Below are positions 38,836 to 49,265 of a stretch of DNA of 64,000 nucleotides, one piece after another. The translations under genes were made by a program, and so were the position numbers. This DNA is from Candidatus Poribacteria bacterium (lineage in GTDB: Bacteria; Poribacteria; WGA-4E; WGA-3G): contig CBDBFU010000007.1 of assembly GCA_965205025.1 (NCBI GenBank), positions 1-64,000 of the forward strand. Direction: 5' to 3'. How positions within the stretch are numbered: the stretch's first letter is position 1; each line of letters begins with the position of its first letter. The notes under the pieces were generated by a model, which had not been told where the DNA came from, did no database searches, and saw only the letters and a program-made list of their open reading frames with translations.

Positions 38836-39058
38836 TTATAATTGTGGGTTATATAAATTCAATTAAAAATACCACAAATTAGAGTAAAAGTCAAAATGTT
38901 TCTTACTGAATGGGATTGTTATCTAATTTTACGGATTTGGGAGAGTTTTGAAAGGTGGTTTTGAACGGGAAGAGTATAACATGTAAACTAACAGGATGCG
39001 GTACATATATTAGGGACTTTGGAAGCGAGTTTCATTAATAGGAATGTACCTTCTGCTG

Positions 39059-40645
39059 TTAGTTGGTTTCTATAGAAACTTTGGCATTAAAAGCGTTTAT
39101 AGTATCTAATCCTCCCCATTGATCTCCAGTTGCACACAATTTGAAATGTTGTCCTTGATCAAACTTGTACTTAAGTTGAGCGGAGTTCCCTGGGAATATG
39201 CCCCAATATTTAGTTAGTGCGTCAATGGCATTTTTGTATTCATCACTTTGTTGGTCATTCCAAACGTCAGGATCTATTCCGTCTGGAGGTGTTTCCGATG
39301 GTAGTATTTTATCTCCATCAAGTAGATAGAATATTCCAATACCTTTGTCTTTACCGACTTGGATATCGATCGTGAGTGTGCCACCAGTTTCAAATGCTGT
39401 AGTATCTATACCGATAATAGTGTAATCCTGATGTGCGACTTTTAGAGTGCGAAAAGTGTTTAAGATTGTTTGTGATGGTTGTTCATGAGTCAGGATTAGA
39501 TCTCCTAAACCGGGACGTTTTCCCTTTAATGATTCTTTAATGAATGATAGATATAGTTCTTCCTCATTATCGTATTCATCTAAATCGTCCAAGAATTGAT
39601 TATAGTCAAGACTTCCCATCAATTCAAAATCATGTGAGATGACGAAACAGTCTACTGGTGATCCCTGTTTACATCCCTTTAGAATTGTTTTTGCTAAAGG
39701 ATGGTTTGTGTCGAAGGTTGTACCTTCACGTTTTCGTCTATTTGCAATTGGTTCTCTTAAACTGGTCATTCTCCCTAAATCTGCATTTGGCACCCAAGTA
39801 TTGATCAGGTATTCGTTTAAGAAATCAATAATATGATCTTTTGAGAGAGCACCTGCTCTCAGGATTTTTCCACTCCCTCAGCATGATTCGTCAGCGAGGG
39901 GACCGTCAATTGCTATAGCATGTATCGGTTTCTGTAAAGTAGGTGCTAATTCCAAAGCCTCTTCTAATGACACCCAGTTAATTTGTTGGGATTTATAATA
40001 TCGCAGCAACAGCAGACGTTCTGCTTTTTCTTGTATGATTGACTCAATGAATTCTACGTCTTCAAGTTTTGTATCAGTCCATAATTCCATGCGTGGACAG
40101 AAACCGATATCCGCATAGGTGCTTTCTTCTTGTGTCCAACCGATATCGAAGTTTACTGTAGTCGGTGGAACATACATGTTGAAGGAGACTACCTTTTTTT
40201 CTATGTGGTTAATTGTGAGATGTCCAGTAAATTGTGAGGGTGTAAGCCAGCCACTCTCCATCTTGAATTGTGCATGGATACGGAAATGTATTTGAGCGAT
40301 TTCATTATTGTATGCACGCAGGCATGCCCACAATCCGCGTGAATCTCCTGAATCAATATGGAGTTGCAGATGTGGTCGGGGATAGAGTTGTTTCAATAGG
40401 GTTAACACTGCATCTTCTTGGATCTGCCAACAATCTCCTACTACGACTGGATCTGATGAAAGGAATGCCTGAAAGACAGAATTAGTGTACTGTTTCACGG
40501 GTTCAGCAACCTGAATATTTGCCAATTCCTCCCATTCTTTATAATACCCGTAAGAGGAATACTCAAATGGAGCGATATAACCATTTATGGACACATTTGC
40601 GTTCGAATCAAGGTTGAGTATGATTTTGTTAGTTGGATCATTCAT
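39059..40645 (-). CDS. SelN (SELENON)-like selenoprotein, copy 5, 528 aa with Sec at residue 256
   Basis: In-frame TGA at 39878-39880: DGPLADESC-U-GSGKILRAGALSKDHIIDFLNEYLINTWV; frame open on both sides; SECIS at 39845-39860. Confidence 0.88.
39845..39860 (-). promoter_or_regulatory. Bacterial SECIS hairpin (copy 5)
   Basis: GAGAGC-AGGU-GCUCUC, 17 nt after the UGA. Confidence 0.82.
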
Positions 40646-40646
40646 T

Positions 40647-42185
40647 TTACTTTTCCTCTACAGTAATTTTTGCCAGAAATGCATTGATACTTCCTTTCTC
40701 GTCAGATGTCCACCCCATAGCAACCAATTTAAATATCTGTCCCTGTTCAAAACGGTGTGTCATTTGTCCAATTTCACAAGGATCATACCAACCTATATCG
40801 TGTGCATCATCAAACATTATTACTTCCGGACGTTTATGAATTGGATCAAAGGTAAGTTTATGGTCGGCATTGAGCAAAAAGAACGTGCCATAAGCCTTTT
40901 CGTCCCCTACTTCCAAATCAATGGTAAGAGTTCCTCCTTTTTCAAAGTTTGTGGCATCAATTACGATAACTTTGTAGTCTTGGTGTCCATATTCTGGTTT
41001 TCGAAAAACGTCCAGTATCTGTTGTGAAGGCTGGTCAGGGGTGAGAATAGTGTTACCGAATCCCGGGAGTTTTCCATCTAAAGCATCCTTGAGAAACAGG
41101 AGGTAATTCTGGCTTTCCAAAGTGCCGTCTTCACGTCGATTTTCCCCAAGGTAATCATTGACGGCTACATGTCCTATTGCTTCCAGGATAGGAGATATGA
41201 CCCATGTATCCACTGGACCTCTTCGCCATTTGTGCCCAATGATTGTGCGTGCCAATGGAGGCATTTTCTCAAATCCTTGGGAATCCCGCATGTGTTTAAG
41301 GTCAGTATTACGTACCCACATATTGATAAAATTTTCGTTCAGGAATTCGATGATTCGTTCGTCGGAGAGGACACCTGCCCTCAAGTTTTTGCCACTTCCT
41401 CAGCATGCTTCGTCTGCGAGGGGACCATCGATTGAAATGGCATGGATCGGTTTCTGTTGCTCTTGTGATATTTTTAATGCTTCATCAAATGGCACCCAGT
41501 TGATTTGCTGCGACTTATAAAAACGTTGTATTAGCGTATTTTCGACCTCTTCACAGGTGATTGAAGTTATGAATGCAGTTTCCTGATGGACATAATGCTT
41601 TTCTGCCCGAAGTTCAATATGCGGACAAATCCCACCACCAGTACTATAATAATAGTCAGGTTCGTCTTTATATTTTTTCCAATTAACATCGAACAATGTC
41701 CCTTCAGGAACCCGCATCTGGAAAAACGCCACACTCTTATTAATACGATCGATCACCAGATGTCCGGCAAACTGTGAAGGGGTGAACCAACCGTCTTCTA
41801 ATGCGAATTCTGCATGGATACGGAACGTAATATCGGCGAGTTCATCGCTATAAGCGCGGAGACATGCCCATAAACCACATGAATCACCCCTGTTAATGTG
41901 CATATCCAGATTCGGTTTGGCATGAAACTGCCTCAACAAGGTAAGAGCCCCTTGGTCATCAATCTCCCAGTAGTCTCCAACGGAGACAGGTTTATCTGGA
42001 AGGAACGCCTGGAAAACCGTAGTAGGATACGTCTTTTCTGGTTCAGCAACGCAGAAATTTGCCAATGCATCCCATTCTTCATGGAAGTTGGGGTTCATGT
42101 GCTCAATCGGTGCGATAACACCTGTGAGGGAGACTTCTGCATCATTGATAAGTTTAAGTGTTATTTTATTTTCCGTTTTTTTCAA
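40647..42185 (-). CDS. SelN-like selenoprotein, copy 4, 512 aa with Sec at residue 262
   Basis: In-frame TGA at 41400-41402: DGPLADEAC-U-GSGKNLRAGVLSDERIIEFLNENFINMW. Confidence 0.88.
41367..41382 (-). promoter_or_regulatory. Bacterial SECIS hairpin (copy 4)
   Basis: GAGGGC-AGGU-GUCCUC, 17 nt after the UGA. Confidence 0.82.
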
Positions 42186-43719
42186 TTTTATTTTCCTTTA
42201 CAGAAATTTTTGCGAGAAAGGCGTTAGTACAGAATTCTCCTTCGTACCAATAGCCTGAAGCCCCTAACCTAAAGATCTGACCCTGGTCAAATTGGTGTTT
42301 AATCTGTAATTCATCATCTGGTTCACCCCAGGTTTCAGCGAGTGCATCACTCGGTTCTTCTTCATCAGTAGATAGTTCACCTTTTTCAGCAAATAGATAA
42401 AACTCACCATCCCCTTTTTCTCTACCGATTTTAATATCAATTGTAAGTGTGCCTCCATTCTCAAAAGATGTTACGTCAATTACGATTACAGTATAATCTA
42501 AATAACCTACAGTAGGTGTTCTAATAACATCCAACACCTCCTCTGAAGAATTCTCAGGAGTAAGTACAATATTTCCCAATCCGGGTTCTTTTCCCTCCAA
42601 CGCATCCTTTAGAAACATTTTGTAATTTTCAGCACTGGTAGGTATACCCGGTCCTGCGTTGACTTCAAGTTCCCTTATCTGTTTTTTACCTAATAAAACA
42701 AGTTCAGAGGATAGAATGTATGAATCTACTGGAGATCCTTTTCTTGATCCAGTTTTAGTGCCTTTAAGGATAGCTTGTGCTAATGGAAGTGTTGCGTCAA
42801 ACGGATTTCCTTCCCGTTCGCGTTTTTTGGCAATCGGTGCTTGTAATCTACGTACACGTCCTAATTCAGAGTTGGATACCCATGTATTGATAAAGTTATT
42901 ATTTAGAAATTCAATAATTGTGTTTTTTGAGAGGACACCTGCCCTCAATCCTTTACCACTCGCTCAGCATGATTCATCGAAAAGCGGTCCATCTAATATG
43001 ACAGCATGGATGGGTTTCTGTTGTGCCAGTGCCATTTCATGTGCTTCCTGCAGCGATACCCAGTTGATTTTTACTAAATTGTAGAAACGTAATATCAATA
43101 TGCGTTCGGCTTCCTCTTGTGTGATTGAGGTAGCGTATTCAACGTTCTGAAATGTTATGTCAGAACGGAGTTCTATTTTTGGACAATATCCAATTTCGCT
43201 TCCAACTTTATCCTGATAAGCATCAAAGTTTATTGTACCATTTGGCACATACATATTAAAGAATGCGACGTTTTCTGTGGACCGGTTAATTACGATGTGA
43301 CCAGTAAATTGCGAGGGTGTAAATCTACCTCCAATAAGTGTGAATTCTGCATGAATTCGAAACACGATGTCAGCATAATCATCATTATATGCGCGTAGGC
43401 ATGCCCACAGACCGAGTGAATCCCCATTATTGCAGTCCAAATTCAAGTTAGGGTTGGTATGAAGTTGGCTTAGTATTTCTAACACACCGTCCCTGATTTG
43501 CCAACATTCACCAACCGAAACGGAATCCGAAGGTAGAAATGCATTAAACACAGAAGTTGGATGTTGTTTTTCCGGTTCCGAGACTCGTAGATTTGCTAAG
43601 ACATCCCATTCTTCATGGAAGTTGAATTGTGTGTATTCTATTGGAGCAATATAACCTTTTAAGGCTACTTTCGTATCGCTATTAAGTGTGAGTGTAATTT
43701 TCTCAGATATTGTGTTCAT
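42166..43719 (-). CDS. SelN-like selenoprotein, copy 3, 517 aa with Sec at residue 252
   Basis: In-frame TGA at 42964-42966: DGPLFDESC-U-ASGKGLRAGVLSKNTIIEFLNNNFINTWV. Confidence 0.88.
42931..42946 (-). promoter_or_regulatory. Bacterial SECIS hairpin (copy 3)
   Basis: GAGGGC-AGGU-GUCCUC, 17 nt after the UGA. Confidence 0.82.
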
Positions 43720-43780
43720 TGGTCTTCTCTATTTTTAAAATCAGTTTAAATTATTACTAAACTTTTGACAATTTTATGTT

Positions 43781-43908
43781 ATACCATTTCTATAAATGAT
43801 TCTCCCATGATTAGGTGATATTTATGTCTTGAAATACTGCACAAACTGGAAGTTTGTGCTACATTAAAGAGATTTTATTAATGGGACTTTAATTACCAGA
43901 AATGGTAT
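43781..43908. repeat. MITE/REPIN-like element
   Basis: ATACCATTTC..gcacaaactggaagtttgtgctaca..GAAATGGTAT. Confidence 0.75.
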
Positions 43909-43911
43909 AAT

Positions 43912-45228
43912 TTATAATTCAGACTCTATAAAAATATTTGCAAAAAAAGAATTAGTGCTTCCTTTTTCATTAATGAAAGTGTTGCCAATTGCTCTCAACT
44001 GAAATATTGTGCCTTTGTCAAAATAGTGTGTTATTCTTCCAGTTTTACCACTCGGAATGCCTGATGCGGTAGCAACTATGCTACTTTGTACTCCTTCCTT
44101 AGAGCGTTCGGCTTTGCCATCAAATAGGGAAAATGATCCAGAAGCATTTGCGCTACCTACCCAGATTTCAATGGTAAGGGTGCCACCATCCTTGTAGGCT
44201 GTCGTATCAATTTGAACAATAGTGTAATCATTAGAATCTGCGTTTGGCGTTCGGAATATTCCTAAAACATTTTTTGACGACTCCTCGCTGTTGAGTACTA
44301 CATTTTCAATTGGATCAATGGACGATATGCTATCTGATTCTGTAGTAGCCCCATTGCTCTTACCAGTGACATCAGAATGTCCTACTCGCTTTCTCACATC
44401 CATTTTTGATGGCACATTCAGAACTGCGGGTACATCAACAATAGCAACAGTCTTTTCTGATATTGCATCATAATCATACGGTTCTTGGAAATGGGTTAAG
44501 TATTGATTACCTATCCCATACATCAAGGTCATAACAACAAAGATTGAAGCGGCGATTATCCACGGAACAATAGGTTTATTTTCAGGGGTAATAGAAGGTT
44601 TTATTCGACAAACCTCTTGGAGAATATTCTTTGTTAGATTTGGCGAGATTTTAAAATGTTCTAATGCTTCCCTAATTATTAATTCATTTTTCTTTAAACG
44701 TTGTCGACCACGTCGGAGACGACTCTTAACAGTGCTTAGTGATACACCTAACATTTTACTAATTTCTGCACATGTCATTTCTCCTAAATAATGAAGCGTC
44801 ATCACAGTCCGTTCACTCTCCTGCAACTTTGATAGTAGTGTCTTTACTACTTCACGTTGAGAGTTGACAGTAGCTTTTTCCTTATCCTCTGCTACATATC
44901 TGGAATAAGCATCATTTTCTATCAAGTCATTGACCTTGTCATCTAACACCTCGGTTTGTAGATGGTTTTTTCGTAACCAGGCAAGACAACACCGTGAAGT
45001 AACAACATAAAGCCATCCAAGAAACTGTTTTGGATCTTTAAGAGTTGACAACTTCTGATATACTCTCAAAAATGTATCTTGAGTAATATCCTCAGCAATA
45101 TGGAAGTCCCCTATTTTCCGCCATGCAATTGCATGAACATGCTTTTGATATCTTTCAACTAAGGTGGAAAAAGCAGTGTCATCACCTTCAAGGATACGGT
45201 GAATTAATACTACATCGTCGTTTTCCAT
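43912..45228 (-). CDS. ECF sigma-70 factor with a TM helix and a C-terminal domain shared with the SelN-like proteins
   Basis: ILEGDDTAFSTLVERYQ..AEDITQDTFL..WLY; EISKMLGVSLSTVKSRLRRGR; TM PWIIAASIFVVMTLMYGIG; then DYTIVQIDTTAYKDGGTLTIEI..FQLRAIG..NSFFANI. Confidence 0.9.
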   Translation of the reverse strand: MENDDVVLIHRILEGDDTAFSTLVERYQKHVHAIAWRKIGDFHIAEDITQDTFLRVYQKLSTLKDPKQFLGWLYVVTSRCCLAWLRKNHLQTEVLDDKVNDLIENDAYSRYVAEDKEKATVNSQREVVKTLLSKLQESERTVMTLHYLGEMTCAEISKMLGVSLSTVKSRLRRGRQRLKKNELIIREALEHFKISPNLTKNILQEVCRIKPSITPENKPIVPWIIAASIFVVMTLMYGIGNQYLTHFQEPYDYDAISEKTVAIVDVPAVLNVPSKMDVRKRVGHSDVTGKSNGATTESDSISSIDPIENVVLNSEESSKNVLGIFRTPNADSNDYTIVQIDTTAYKDGGTLTIEIWVGSANASGSFSLFDGKAERSKEGVQSSIVATASGIPSGKTGRITHYFDKGTIFQLRAIGNTFINEKGSTNSFFANIFIESEL

Positions 45229-45314
45229 TAGATACCTCAATGAAGACTTCCCATTACTCATGCAAGTCAGATACATTTTGTATGAAAGAACATGCTAACA
45301 ACCTGAACCTTTCT

Positions 45315-46964
45315 CTATCTACTTTGTTCTATTGATATTGTTAGTAGAAATGCATTCATGCTTCCTTCATCACTAAACCAATTACCCGTAGCCCCGAGTT
45401 TAAAGACTTGACCTTTCTTAAATTTATACCTGATGATTTTACTATTACCGGGTGATATGTCCCATGCGTTGACGAGTGCGTCTCTTGGAACCCCTTCCGT
45501 GGGAATCTTTGTCTGATTATCAAACAGATCAAATGAACCACTTGCTTCAGCACTCCCGACCGAGATATCAATAGAAAGTATACCGCCGTTAATAAAGGCA
45601 GTGGTGTCCAATTTCAATGACAGTATAATCTTGATGACCCCTTTTTGGTGTTCGAAAAACGTTGAGGATTTGTTGTTGAGATTTCTCTGCAGTGAGTTTA
45701 ACTTTTTGCCCTTTCACTATTGCAGGATCTAAGTTATCTATCACTTCAACATCTAACCCTGGGTATTCCCCTGCTAATGCCTCTTGTAAAAACACGAAGT
45801 AATCCCGTCCCCAGTTTGATGATGGAAATTCATTGACCGGTTGTCTCCCCATAACTTCAAGATCTGTTGAGATTACTAAAGAGTCTGCTGGTGAACGCTC
45901 TTTCCAACCTTTGATGACGGCTTGAATTAATGGGTCATTTTTGTCTAATTTACGAAATCCCTCTTCCTGTCTTTTCGTGATATAAGCGTGCATTACTGAT
46001 GTGCGTCCTAATTCTATATTTGATACCCAAGTATTAATAAACTTATCGTTCAATAATTGTATATTCCGTTTATTAGAGAGGGCAACTGGCCCTCAAGGCT
46101 TTGCCACTTCCTCAGCAGGCTTCGTCATTCATCGGACCATCTATTGAGATAACATGGATCGGTTTATCTTGTTTCTTGTGCCAACCTTAACGCATCATCA
46201 AGAGGAACCCAATTAATTTGGTAAAAACTATAAAAACGATGTGCAAGAGTCATCTCTGCTGCCTGTTGTGTAATGGATTCTTCGAATTGGATATTCTCCA
46301 AAATATATCTTGTGTCCCACTACGGAGTTCCATTTGTGTACAGACACCAGAATCTATTATACTATAATCCCTATCTTTATATTTTTTCCATCCAACATCA
46401 AAGTTAATTACCCCATCAGGGACATACATATTGAAGAACACTACCTTTTTTTCCATGCGATCAAGTATGAGATGTCCCTTAAACTGTGATGGCGTGAACC
46501 GACCGTCTTTTAACTCAAACTCTGCATGAATTCGAAACACGATGTCAGCATATTTATCGTTATAGGCACGTAGACATGCCAACAATCCATAGGAATCTCC
46601 GGAGTCAATGTGCATAGAATACTTTGGTTTTTGGGAGGAGTTGTTGCAATAATGGGAGTATTCCTTCCGCATTTATTTTCCACAGTTCACCAACTGAAAC
46701 CGGTTTGTCTGGCAGAAAAGCCTGAAAAACCGTTGTTGGATGCTGTTTTTCCGGTTCGTTTTCCCGTAGATTTGCTAATGCATCCCACTCCAAATGGAAA
46801 TTGTTTATAGTTATCTCAATCGGAGCAATGAATGCGTTGACTGATATCTGTGATGTATCTTCAATAGTAAGCAATACTTTTTCTCCGTTCACTAAACTGT
46901 CATCTGCGAAAATATGGCAGTTGATTAAAATCAAAATAGAACAATACAAAATTACGATTTTCAT
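45315..46964 (-). CDS. SelN-like selenoprotein, copy 2, with signal peptide; several frameshifts in this assembly
   Basis: Fragments 46605-46964, 46250-46672, 45589-46053 and 45315-45617 tile the paralog; TGA at 46112-46114 in DGPMNDEAC-U-GSGKALRA. Confidence 0.78.
46078..46094 (-). promoter_or_regulatory. Bacterial SECIS hairpin (copy 2)
   Basis: GAGGGC-(C)AGUU-GCCCUC, 17 nt after the UGA; one extra base also shifts the reading frame. Confidence 0.72.
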
Positions 46965-47026
46965 TTCAAGAATCCTTTCTATTTGTGTATTTATAGTAAA
47001 CTTTAGATTTAATTAGACACTTTACT

Positions 47027-47070
47027 TGTAGGAGCGACCTCCTGGTCGCGACCGGGAGGTCGCTCCTACA
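47027..47070. repeat. Near-perfect 44-bp GTAG-type REP-like palindrome
   Basis: tgtaggagcgacctcctggtcg-cgaccgggaggtcgctcctaca; half copy at about 49432. Confidence 0.8.
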
Positions 47071-47463
47071 GAAGAGGTGTGGGACGCGAACGTAAGTTGA
47101 TCCAATAGAAAATGTAGTATTCATTTTATTGTTTACTATAATACACAATGAATTTACTGCTATCAACAGTATTTCTACACATAGAAACTCGGACATTATT
47201 GTTATGGCAAATATTTTTGTATACTTTTATTTAGGTCATACGATCACTCACAAGTTAGTCAACGAGAAATAAAAAATGACAACCTAAAAGAAATCATGCA
47301 ACATTTCCTAATTGAACAATATAGTGACGCGTGTAATGTATAAAACGGTTGCGTAATTCTGCATATTCTTGATGAAATAATCGAGATATAATCATTAAAA
47401 TAACATACTCAGATATAGTAATTATGATTTTACCTGTCTAAAATATGTAGGTGACAACTTGGT

Positions 47464-49126
47464 TTATTCTACAGATATTCTTGCTTGAAATGCATTGACA
47501 GAATCTTTACTATCCTTTATTTCCGAGGCTGCTAATGCAAACCTGAAATGTTGGCTACGGTAGAATGGGTACGAAATTTTCGCTGTTCCATTTTGAGGGA
47601 CATCTGTTGCATTTGCAATGGATTGATCGTATCGTTGTCCTCGTTTTTGTGGGAATTGAATGTCTCCTTCGTATAAATAGCAGGAAGTAATGAATTCTGC
47701 ACTTCCAAACCGTATATCAATGTTAAGTGTGCCACCATTTTCGAATGCGGTGGCATCAATATTTACAATAGTGGACTCCTGAAAACCTGCCTTGGGAGTT
47801 CTTACAACATCTACCACTTCTAATGTGGATTGTTCGGAATTGAGAACTACATCTAAACCAGTTATGTAAGGTATTAATGGATTTTTTTGTTCATTTGTAT
47901 CTTCCACATCTTCTAACAGATAAGCGAATGAATTGTCAGTATTGAATCCAGGTAATTTTCTTTCTAATGACTCAATGAGAAAGAGACGGTAGTTTTCTGC
48001 TCTTGTTCTACCCCCATCCCAATCGTGTCCATCGTAAAGATATTTGTTCAAGGGTAGTTTACCTATCACTTCAAAATCAGGTGATATAACAAGGCAATCA
48101 ACAGGAGATCTCTCATGCCAACCCTCTTTAATTGCTTGTGCTAAAGCATGATTCGTATCAAACGTTTTTTCCTTGTCCGCATATCTTTTAGCGATGTATT
48201 CCCGGGAACTCGGTTTCCGTCCTGCTTCAAAATTGGATACCCATGTGTTGATGAAGTTATCGTTTAGAAATTTAATGACACGTTCATTTCCGAGGACACC
48301 TGCCCTCAAGTCTTTTCCGCTCCCTCAGCAGGCTTCATCAGTAAGTGGTCCATCAAGTGAAATAGCATGAACAGGTTTCTGTTGCTTTGGTGCTAATTCA
48401 AGTGCTTCTTCTAACGAAACCCAGTTAATCTGTTGTGAATCATAGAATTTCAGAATTAGGTTGTGTTCTGCTTCCTCTTGACTAATGGCTTGTGTGTATT
48501 TGACACCATTTAAGACCTCTTCTGAACCTGTCCATAGTTCCATTCTTGAGCAGTAACCACAGTCAGTGATCCACCGTGGTTTATCCCAGTCATCTAATAT
48601 AGTTTCCCAATGTACATCGAAGTTTAATGTGCCTTCCGGTACACCCATTTGAAAGTATGATACAGATTCTTGTGTGCGGTCAATTACAAGGAGTCCAGCA
48701 AACTGTGAAGGTGTAAACCAACCATCAGTGAGTGCGAATTCAGCATGAATCCGGAATACAATATGAGCGAGTTGATTGTTGTATGCCCGTAAACATGCGC
48801 GGAGACCTTTTGCTTCCTCTATACCGTACATTTCTACACGCATTTCTAAAGATGGATTAGGATGGAGTTGTTTTAACAGTCTTGTTGCCGTGCCTTGTTT
48901 TATGTCCCAGCATTCACCCACTGCGACAGATTCAGGTGGGAGAAAGTCATGAAAATCGGAATGAGAATACTGACTTTCTGGTTCTGCGGTTTGCCAATTT
49001 GCTAATGCATCCCATTTTTTCGTGAAAGTTTCCAGCAGTATGTTGGATTGGTGCTATTGTTGCATTTACGGTGATTTCTGTTTTACTGTTTATGTTTAAG
49101 TTAATTTTATCTGTATGTGTATTCAT
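47464..49126 (-). CDS. SelN-like selenoprotein, copy 1, about 553 aa (one extra A near 49015-49020)
   Basis: ATG 49126 MNTHTDKINLNINSKTEITVNATIAPI; in-frame TGA at 48325-48327: DGPLTDEAC-U-GSGKDLRAGVLGNERVIKFLNDNFINTWV. Confidence 0.85.
48292..48307 (-). promoter_or_regulatory. Bacterial SECIS hairpin (copy 1)
   Basis: GAGGGC-AGGU-GUCCUC, 17 nt after the UGA. Confidence 0.82.
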
Positions 49127-49150
49127 CTGATTTCTCTAATTTATCTAATT

Positions 49151-49265
49151 ATACCATTTCTATAAATTATTGTCTCATTAGGCGGTGATTATGGTAGTCA
49201 TTTTTCAGGTCACAAACTGGAAGTTTGTGGTACAAAAAAGAGACATTTTCAATTAGAAATGGTTT
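49151..49265. repeat. MITE/REPIN-like element
   Basis: ATACCATTTC..cacaaactggaagtttgtggtaca..GAAATGGTTT. Confidence 0.72.

Follow-up and report, generated by a model that had tools for sequence, protein, structure and literature searches.

The window analysed here is a stretch of 64,000 nucleotides (nt) from Candidatus Poribacteria bacterium (assembly GCA_965205025.1, contig CBDBFU010000007.1, positions 1 to 64,000), a symbiont of sponges. Between 39059 and 49126 its minus strand carries five paralogous genes that resemble selenoprotein N (SelenoN, the product of SELENON/SEPN1 in animals). Each of the five has one in-frame TGA with a short hairpin downstream, and the array is split by the gene for an extracytoplasmic function (ECF) sigma factor (Table 1). 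The genome holds seven SelenoN-like copies, five in the window and two on contig C4. From the genes, their in-frame UGA codons, the hairpins, the constraint on the RNA and the selenocysteine machinery genes of this genome, each hairpin is predicted, with a probability of about 0.88, to be a bacterial selenocysteine insertion sequence (SECIS) inside the coding region of a bacterial selenoprotein N homolog.

Selenoprotein N-like genes and their hairpins

Copies 3, 4 and 5 (P0003, P0002 and P0001) are intact when TGA is read as selenocysteine (Sec, U). A cysteine is always found directly before the TGA, and the five copies share the motif D-E-S/A-C-U-G/A-S-G-K. At the core of this motif, copy 5 has S-C-U-G, copies 1, 2 and 4 have A-C-U-G and copy 3 has S-C-U-A, with C-U in all five; the redox motif of animal SelenoN is SCUG (PMC12839072; this paper and the others cited below are drawn on through excerpts). 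Copies 3, 4 and 5 follow each other without a gap, each stop adjoining or overlapping the start of the next gene (40645-40647 and 42166-42185). They are without the N-terminal signal-like segment that is present in copy 2 and in many homologs.

Searches of Pfam, NCBIfam and PDB sequences with the SelenoN-like proteins gave nothing relevant. In P0001-P0003 and copy 1, Pfam found no family and neither an EF-hand nor an endoplasmic reticulum (ER) membrane anchor was detected, and a protein-atlas search with the database homolog P0004 returned only one Poribacteria cluster without a function name (0.78). With phmmer, the animal proteins matched by P0002 include one from a jellyfish (E 6.9e-20) and one from a sea anemone (E 7.5e-19), and the jellyfish protein in turn matches dozens of named Selenoprotein N proteins with E about 1e-97. 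Comparison of P0002 with coelacanth Selenoprotein N (P0306, UniRef) by BLASTP gave E 2e-30 and 26% identity over 386 columns, and both the C-U-G-S-G region and the downstream motif L-R-x-x-V-L...L-N-E-N-F-I are aligned there. The alignment to animal SelenoN begins after the EF-hand region of the animal protein, and the bacterial proteins have an extra C-terminal beta-rich domain of about 140 amino acids. By these alignments, the genes encode bacterial homologs of the SelenoN core and not orthologs of the animal ER protein. An earlier note, made from the DNA sequence alone, had called the product a eukaryote-like selenoprotein, and the jellyfish and coelacanth matches bear this out. An AlphaFold model has a mean pLDDT (predicted local distance difference test) of 75.1. 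A Foldseek search against PDB returned generic beta-sandwich domains and one Thioredox_DsbH chain, with low template modelling (TM) scores, and was not used for assigning a function.

An exhaustive phmmer search gave 436 cluster representatives, many of which end exactly one residue before U, showing that public gene calls stop at the UGA. Public annotation splits the genes at this codon and labels the halves 'hypothetical protein', and for the more distant truncated relatives only names of the type 'hypothetical protein, Candidatus Poribacteria' were found. About 430 relatives were reported in the genome collection, of which the best 80 were kept; almost all of the best relatives are titled Candidatus or uncultured Poribacteria and a few 'uncultured bacterium'. 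Of 61 genomes sampled from the phylum, 45 have a match, and a single genome has as many as 19. The genomes with a match were, by family, 35 of 36 in f1, 5 of 6 in f2, 4 of 11 in f3 and 0 of 7 in others. All but eight of the rows listed for this sample have exactly one TGA and no other stop.

In all five copies of the window a 6-bp stem starts exactly 17 nt after the UGA, and the stem and loop sequences are those given in the earlier note (Table 1; GAGGGC-CAGUU-GCCCUC for copy 2 as assembled). The hairpins alone have energies of -7.7, -7.7, -7.7, -8.3 and -9.6 kcal/mol, and their 48-nt contexts of -10.3 to -15.3 kcal/mol. Bacterial SECIS elements lie in the coding region, immediately 3' of the UGA, and have a small apical loop with a guanosine (PMC1088965). 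In the bacterial SECIS (bSECIS) model, restated from bSECISearch (Zhang and Gladyshev 2005) in the legend to Fig. 2 of PMC13188914, a loop of 3-9 nt sits on a stem of 4-16 bp, a G is found in the first two loop positions and is usually followed by G or U, the distance from UGA to loop is 16-37 nt and the energy is at most -7.5 kcal/mol. All five hairpins fall within these ranges, with a 6-bp stem, a 4-nt loop (5 nt in copy 2 as assembled), a UGA-to-loop distance of 23 nt (17-nt spacer and 6-nt stem) and energies below the threshold. The loop is AGGU in four copies and AGUU in copy 2 when a probable extra C is left out, and the early G is found in all but two of 147 relatives (L103:4246 and L130:1083, with G at loop position 3).

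The extra C, and the apparent frameshifts of copies 1 and 2, were examined by comparing the window with short-read contigs from four public runs. As assembled, copy 2 has at least five frame changes and copy 1 has one frameshift near its N-terminus. One contig of run X1 equals the window without any substitution, apart from 6 gaps. Short-read contigs are without single bases at 45608, 46088, 46172, 46303 (here two bases, 46303-46304) and 46628, and the X1 contig is additionally without one base at 49015; the base at 46088 is absent from the contigs of all four runs. All of the indel sites are homopolymer runs. With the extra bases removed, copy 2 becomes a single reading frame of 547 codons that contains one TGA and has 47% identity to P0002 over 534 columns, and corrected copy 1 encodes 553 amino acids from the ATG at 49126, again with one TGA. 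The extra bases are probably assembly errors and the source of the apparent frameshifts. Removal of the C at 46088 leaves an AGUU loop in copy 2 and keeps the gene in frame, and the same hairpin is present in the paralog at G000:C4:15718. The true loop is most likely AGUU, so that the bracketed C of the earlier note is present as assembled but is probably an error. X1 may be the sample from which the window was assembled; the other three runs belong to different studies and contain close relatives. Another extra base, at 45250, also in a homopolymer run and probably likewise an assembly error, lies in the region where the sigma-factor gene starts. Contigs of an RNA run, X23, cover parts of 43779-46991 including the copy 2 UGA at about 96% likeness. 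They were not counted as evidence because the RNA library may contain DNA and because contigs say nothing about translation.

Pairing-preserving changes among the five copies, from G-C to A-U and from G-U to G-C, had been pointed out in the earlier note. These changes are seen, but only two of the six pairs vary and only one of them on both sides. The five 48-nt contexts have ordinary fold z-scores (-1.36, -0.61, -1.47, +0.33 and -2.40), and the bare hairpins of 16-17 nt have z of -2.85 to -3.20. Because the copies are paralogs, their contexts fold no better than shuffles and there is one both-sided change, the window cannot decide the function of the hairpin; its five copies alone give no more than shared descent could give.

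Constraint on the hairpin across relatives

The sets of Sec-type relatives comprised 125 sequences for codon choice, 124 for resampling, 117 in the covariation alignment and 147 tabulated segments. The codons of the stem are near-fixed. Arg+7 is AGG in 107 and AGA in 18 of the 125 sequences, codons that have family-wide shares of 8% and 18% for Arg, and Ala+8 is GCA (116/118), Gly+9 GGU (78/79), Val+10 GUC (89/93) and Leu+11 CUC (114/123). Neighbouring two-fold sites upstream are saturated (Asp-4 68/56, Glu-3 71/54). Observed codon entropy, as a ratio to the expected, is 0.04-0.24 at +7, +8, +10 and +11, and at the other codons from -40 to +35 it is mostly 0.5-1.1.

All six pairs of the exact helix (register 0 or +2) are present in 121 of 124 sequences, compared with 4.4% of 62,000 synonymous resamples, and the remaining three sequences have five of the six. 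In the alignment of 117 sequences, 97.3% of the cells pair and both-sided changes are found in three of the six pairs (14 cells). None of 500 shuffles reaches the observed level, and in slid controls the pairing fraction is 46-81%. When the hairpin codons are left out of tree building, at least 9, 21 and 12 changes of state occur on the tree for pairs 1, 4 and 5, respectively. It is thus from these relatives, and not from the window by itself, that the hairpin gains its support.

All 147 tabulated relatives have a stem of at least 5 bp, and 32 stem/loop variants occur among them. Both changes in the variant GAGAAC/GUUCUC are synonymous, and further variants are UAGGGC/GUCCUA and CAGGGC/GUCCUG, in which the base pair goes from G-C to U-A and to C-G, and GAGGAC/GUCCUC. 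Where Val is replaced by Glu the helix is shifted to the +2 register with a 6-nt loop. A clade of 36% identity has GAGAGCG-GGUC-CGCUCUC on the peptide L-R-A-G-P-L.

Five homologs have lost selenocysteine, four with a Gly codon at the site (L098/L109, L063/L117, L115 and L121) and one with a Cys codon (L146/L148). They are recent derivatives, the Gly forms being found among near-identical Sec forms and the Cys form having seven TGA-bearing orthologs that are 62-85% identical. A scan for DNA of ancient Cys homologs gave two loci. L146 was ruled out as a recent Sec-to-Cys change, 7 of 8 orthologs keeping TGA. The other, from Verrucomicrobiales (L147), was set aside, the match being weak (E 5e-5, 63 residues) and the frame broken by stops. 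The loop G, present in all 147 Sec forms, is absent in two of the five non-Sec forms (loops AACU and AUUU), with a hypergeometric probability of about 9 in 10,000 for related sequences that are not independent. The preceding UGC has become UGU in three of the five and in none of the 125 Sec forms. Both changes look like signs of relaxation. Anciently Cys-containing homologs are known as proteins (P0127, P0131, P0136, P0145 and P0151). P0017 and P0018 have Trp at the Sec site, and Gly, Trp and Cys are each one base change away from UGA; one metagenome scan for DNA of the Trp form P0017 found only a Sec-type relative. The Gly and Trp forms cannot use the same chemistry and may be inactive or repurposed paralogs.

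Several observations weigh against a SECIS function. All five non-Sec homologs keep the 6-bp stem, which persists without Sec at least for a while. The earlier note had held that an equally conserved hairpin in Cys-containing homologs would speak against a SECIS, and on these five recently derived forms the outcome is divided, the stem being kept but the loop G lost in two. Some hairpin of at least 6 bp forms in codons +4 to +15 in 32.6% of the synonymous resamples, and the mean minimum free energy is -8.96 observed against -6.07 in the null, with only 16 of 124 sequences individually beyond 5%; the amino acid sequence itself favours hairpins. The three copies at -7.7 kcal/mol pass the energy threshold of the bSECIS model only narrowly, and an Rfam scan of 39000-49200 with E up to 10 gave chance matches only and no SECIS family.

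The resampling and the retained stems could be explained if the hairpin were a by-product of the conserved peptide L-R-A-G-V-L and of shared descent, the UGA being a true stop or a pseudogene lesion, and L-R-x-x-V-L is conserved in animal SelenoN too. This explanation is extremely unlikely. The specific helix is complete in nearly all sequences and in few of the resamples, rare codons are near-fixed where flanking synonymous sites are saturated, compensatory and register-shifting changes recur, and the frame is open and conserved past the UGA in almost every relative.

A longer recoding signal, with the 6-bp hairpin as its core and the codons -1 to +4 near the UGA as a further part, is possible if somewhat unlikely. 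At these codons, UGC is used for Cys-1 in all 125 sequences, GGG for Gly+1 in 97 of 116 and AGY for Ser+2 in 116 of 116. RNAalifold proposes a second helix of 5 bp, UGCUG/CGGCA, containing the UGA, and the change of UGC to UGU in non-Sec forms also points in this direction. However, neither this helix nor a pairing of UGA-GGG with the 3' arm shows a both-sided change, and the shuffles do as well as the real data; codon-family inertia or effects of the stop-codon context may have frozen Ser AGY and Gly GGG. Synonymous sites adjacent to the UGA are frozen (e.g. 41388-41405), including AAA in 107 of 122, and no covarying helix accounts for them.

Selenocysteine machinery and bacterial SECIS elements

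The genome has a selB gene (G000:C20:46468-48363) that scores 366 bits (cut-off 242) over profile positions 1-579 of 581, and selA, selD (with an in-frame TGA of its own) and tRNA-SeC are also present. A genome-wide scan for an in-frame TGA with a hairpin gave 384 candidates, mostly noise, which were kept if a Pfam domain spans the UGA. Twelve other selenoprotein genes were recovered in this way: one FdhA-like, three heavy-metal-associated (HMA), five AhpC/TSA, one thioredoxin-like, one GRDB-like and one UGSC. In these genes the TGA lies inside a redox or metal-binding domain, which argues against a general reassignment of TGA. One candidate (L167, DUF4432) was dropped as probably two adjacent genes. 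The selenoproteome of this genome is rich; the three HMA proteins have the motif G-M-T-U-x-x-C, and one of them is a fusion protein with WD40 repeats and a planctomycete cytochrome c domain.

The other selenoprotein genes of the genome have, like the SelenoN genes, apical stems of 6-9 bp and loops containing G. GUGC-AGGAU-GCAC in HMA and GUGC-AGUAU-GCAC in UGSC share the pattern GC-AG(G/U)..U-G with GGGC-AGGU-GUCC of SelenoN, and the apical loop starts 18-24 nt after the UGA in this set (23 nt for HMA and 19 nt for UGSC) and 24 nt after it in SelenoN. The loop is different in the FdhA-like gene (GGUCU) and in the AhpC genes (GUU or AGG), the SelenoN spacer of 17 nt is the longest of the set, and the selD hairpin is weak (4 bp). 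The comparison with other SECIS elements of the same genome, suggested in the earlier note, thus yields similar loops at similar distances in the unrelated HMA and UGSC genes, and these would fit a shared recognition motif for SelB.

The loop of the E. coli fdhF SECIS reads GCAGGUC. In common with fdhF and with the bSECIS consensus, the SelenoN element is a stem-loop in the coding region just 3' of the UGA, in a genome with selA, selB, selC and selD. It differs from the consensus in being very short and unusually uniform, the same 16 nt recurring across most paralogs, and in having neither a covarying lower stem nor an Rfam match. As a bacterial SECIS the hairpin is compact but otherwise ordinary, and its interest lies in the family that it serves and in the parallel with the selenocysteine redefinition element (SRE) of animal SEPN1. 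The claim of the earlier note that these genes are decoded by the bacterial SelB system is well supported at the sequence level by the machinery genes, the agreement with the bSECIS model, the constraint on the stem codons and the similar loops in the same genome.

A stem-loop of this kind could also stimulate read-through of the UGA or pausing of the ribosome without SelB, for example through near-cognate decoding, and be comparable to the SRE rather than to a SECIS. The stem-loop of animal SEPN1 stimulates read-through of UGA and UAG (PMC2248747, PMC5727441), and some bacterial homologs have Gly or Trp at the site. Such a role without SelB is nevertheless very unlikely, as a bacterial SECIS must sit just after the UGA (PMC1088965, PMC13188914) and no other candidate element is found there. 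The full Sec machinery is present in the genome, the site is the Sec position of SelenoN beside a Cys, and the loop matches those of other selenoprotein genes of this genome.

SelW-like proteins, glutathione peroxidase (GPx) and deiodinase, once thought to be eukaryotic, have been found in bacteria with SECIS elements of this type (PMC1088965), and the same is reported for bacterial SelO, whose in-frame UGA is directly followed by a hairpin (PMC12013277). Because of these precedents, a eukaryote-type selenoprotein decoded via a bacterial SECIS is a known kind, and the present genes are of the same kind, a family first known from eukaryotes with a UGA and a downstream hairpin. They differ in that SelenoN is absent from the families named in the excerpts of the prokaryotic selenoprotein literature. 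Literature searches found no paper on bacterial SelenoN, and the available parts of prokaryotic reviews make no mention of it.

With the hairpin as a bacterial SECIS, SelB carrying GTP and Sec-tRNA(Sec) would bind the apical loop A-G-G/U-U on its C-G closing pair. When the UGA is in the ribosomal A site, the 17-nt spacer would put the 16-nt hairpin immediately outside the channel by which the mRNA enters. Insertion of selenocysteine at C-U-G-S-G-K would then replace termination and give a protein of about 510-550 amino acids. The hairpin would depend on the keeping of particular synonymous codons, AGG or AGA (Arg), GCA, GGU or GUU, GUC and CUC.

Table 1. Features of the SelenoN-like array in the window (strand in brackets) and other selenoprotein loci of the genome; aa, amino acids.
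Feature	Position	Description
Copy 1, SelenoN-like selenoprotein gene	47464..49126 (-)	Homology to P0002; N-terminal part frameshifted at T-run near 49015
Copy 1, in-frame UGA (Sec codon)	48325-48327 (-)	Context D-E-A-C-U-G-S-G-K
Copy 1, SECIS-like hairpin	48292..48307 (-)	GAGGGC-AGGU-GUCCUC; -7.7 kcal/mol
Copy 2, SelenoN-like gene	45315..46964 (-)	Pseudogene-like as assembled (22 stops in one frame), probably intact
Copy 2, in-frame UGA	46112-46114 (-)	
Copy 2, hairpin	46078..46094 (-)	GAGGGC-(C)AGUU-GCCCUC; extra C at 46088 probably assembly error
ECF sigma factor, membrane segment and C-terminal domain	43912..45276 (-)	Pfam Sigma70_r2/r4/ECF
Copy 3 (P0003), intact SelenoN-like selenoprotein gene	42166..43719 (-)	517 aa, U252
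Copy 3, in-frame UGA	42964-42966 (-)	Context E-S-C-U-A-S-G-K
Copy 3, hairpin	42931..42946 (-)	GAGGGC-AGGU-GUCCUC
Copy 4 (P0002), intact	40647..42185 (-)	512 aa, U262
Copy 4, in-frame UGA	41400-41402 (-)	
Copy 4, hairpin	41367..41382 (-)	GAGGGC-AGGU-GUCCUC
Copy 5 (P0001), intact	39059..40645 (-)	528 aa, U256
Copy 5, in-frame UGA	39878-39880 (-)	Context E-S-C-U-G-S-G-K
Copy 5, hairpin	39845..39860 (-)	GAGAGC-AGGU-GCUCUC; -8.3 kcal/mol
Other selenoprotein loci, G000	C3:196743, C15:368209, C23:110831, C23:111287, C23:107917, C25:52375, C25:51313	
Other selenoprotein loci, G000 (continued)	C2:185029, C3:116014, C7:85881, C20:97252, C28:254193, C4 selD	

The sigma-factor gene and the parallel with animal SEPN1

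The C-terminal part of the sigma-factor gene (43921-44316) matches residues 374-511 of P0002 with E 4.8e-17, and the C-terminal domain of the sigma-factor protein is homologous to that of the SelenoN-like proteins. Fusions of a larger extent are found in other genomes. L146:1-1419 encodes a membrane segment and linker, with the 5' end cut off, fused to a whole SelenoN-like domain, and in P0127 a whole sigma-like N-terminus is fused to a whole SelenoN-like domain. The SelenoN-like domain of such a fusion is Sec-encoded in seven of eight orthologs of L146. The fusions suggest a role for the SelenoN-like domains as extracytoplasmic sensors for, or partners of, a stress regulon.

Between the genes, a perfect GC-rich palindrome is found at 47020-47076, and the intergenic segments 43721-44053 and 46718-47383 have a summed contig depth of 10-100 times that of their flanks in three DNA runs. 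These are repeated elements, probably similar to repetitive extragenic palindromic (REP) sequences or miniature inverted-repeat transposable elements (MITEs).

The bacterial genes and animal SELENON/SEPN1 have in common a homologous core, the position of the Sec motif and a coding-region stem-loop next to the UGA. In the animal mRNA this stem-loop, the SRE, adjoins the Sec UGA and enhances recoding (PMC12839072, PMC3541580, PMC2248747, PMC5727441). The animal gene differs in having a SECIS in the 3' untranslated region (3' UTR) in addition to the SRE, and the bacterial genes differ in being amplified, with seven copies in this genome. The Rfam scan of 39000-49200 (E up to 10) included the eukaryotic SECIS models, and no match to them was found. 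The close packing of the genes leaves no space for a SECIS in a 3' UTR.

The bacterial stem sits on the codons for L-R-x-x-V-L, which are aligned with L-R-E-T-V-L of animal SelenoN. The SRE of animal SEPN1 and the bacterial SelenoN SECIS both follow directly on the homologous Sec codon, and it is possible, though unlikely, that they are one element by descent. If SelenoN was passed between bacteria and early animals, as might have happened between sponges and their symbionts, the SRE could be the remnant of a bacterial SECIS, and it would have been demoted to an enhancer after a 3'-UTR SECIS took over. In a lesser version, the first bacterial SelenoN family may be that of the Poribacteria, where it would be amplified and linked to ECF sigma and anti-sigma factors.

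Because public annotation cuts the genes at the UGA, a large and amplified family of selenoproteins is missed in counts. In humans SelenoN is a muscle-disease protein, and its catalytic mechanism is described in outline only in the excerpts of PMC12839072, and the PDB search matched no solved structure by sequence. The bacterial homologs could allow expression, structure determination and biochemistry, and could serve as a tractable model for the human disease protein. The natural SECIS of 16 nt, with its many variants, would be useful for defining the recognition by SelB outside the proteobacteria and for a better prediction of bacterial selenoproteins. The position of the hairpin parallels that of the animal SRE and raises an evolutionary question that can be tested.

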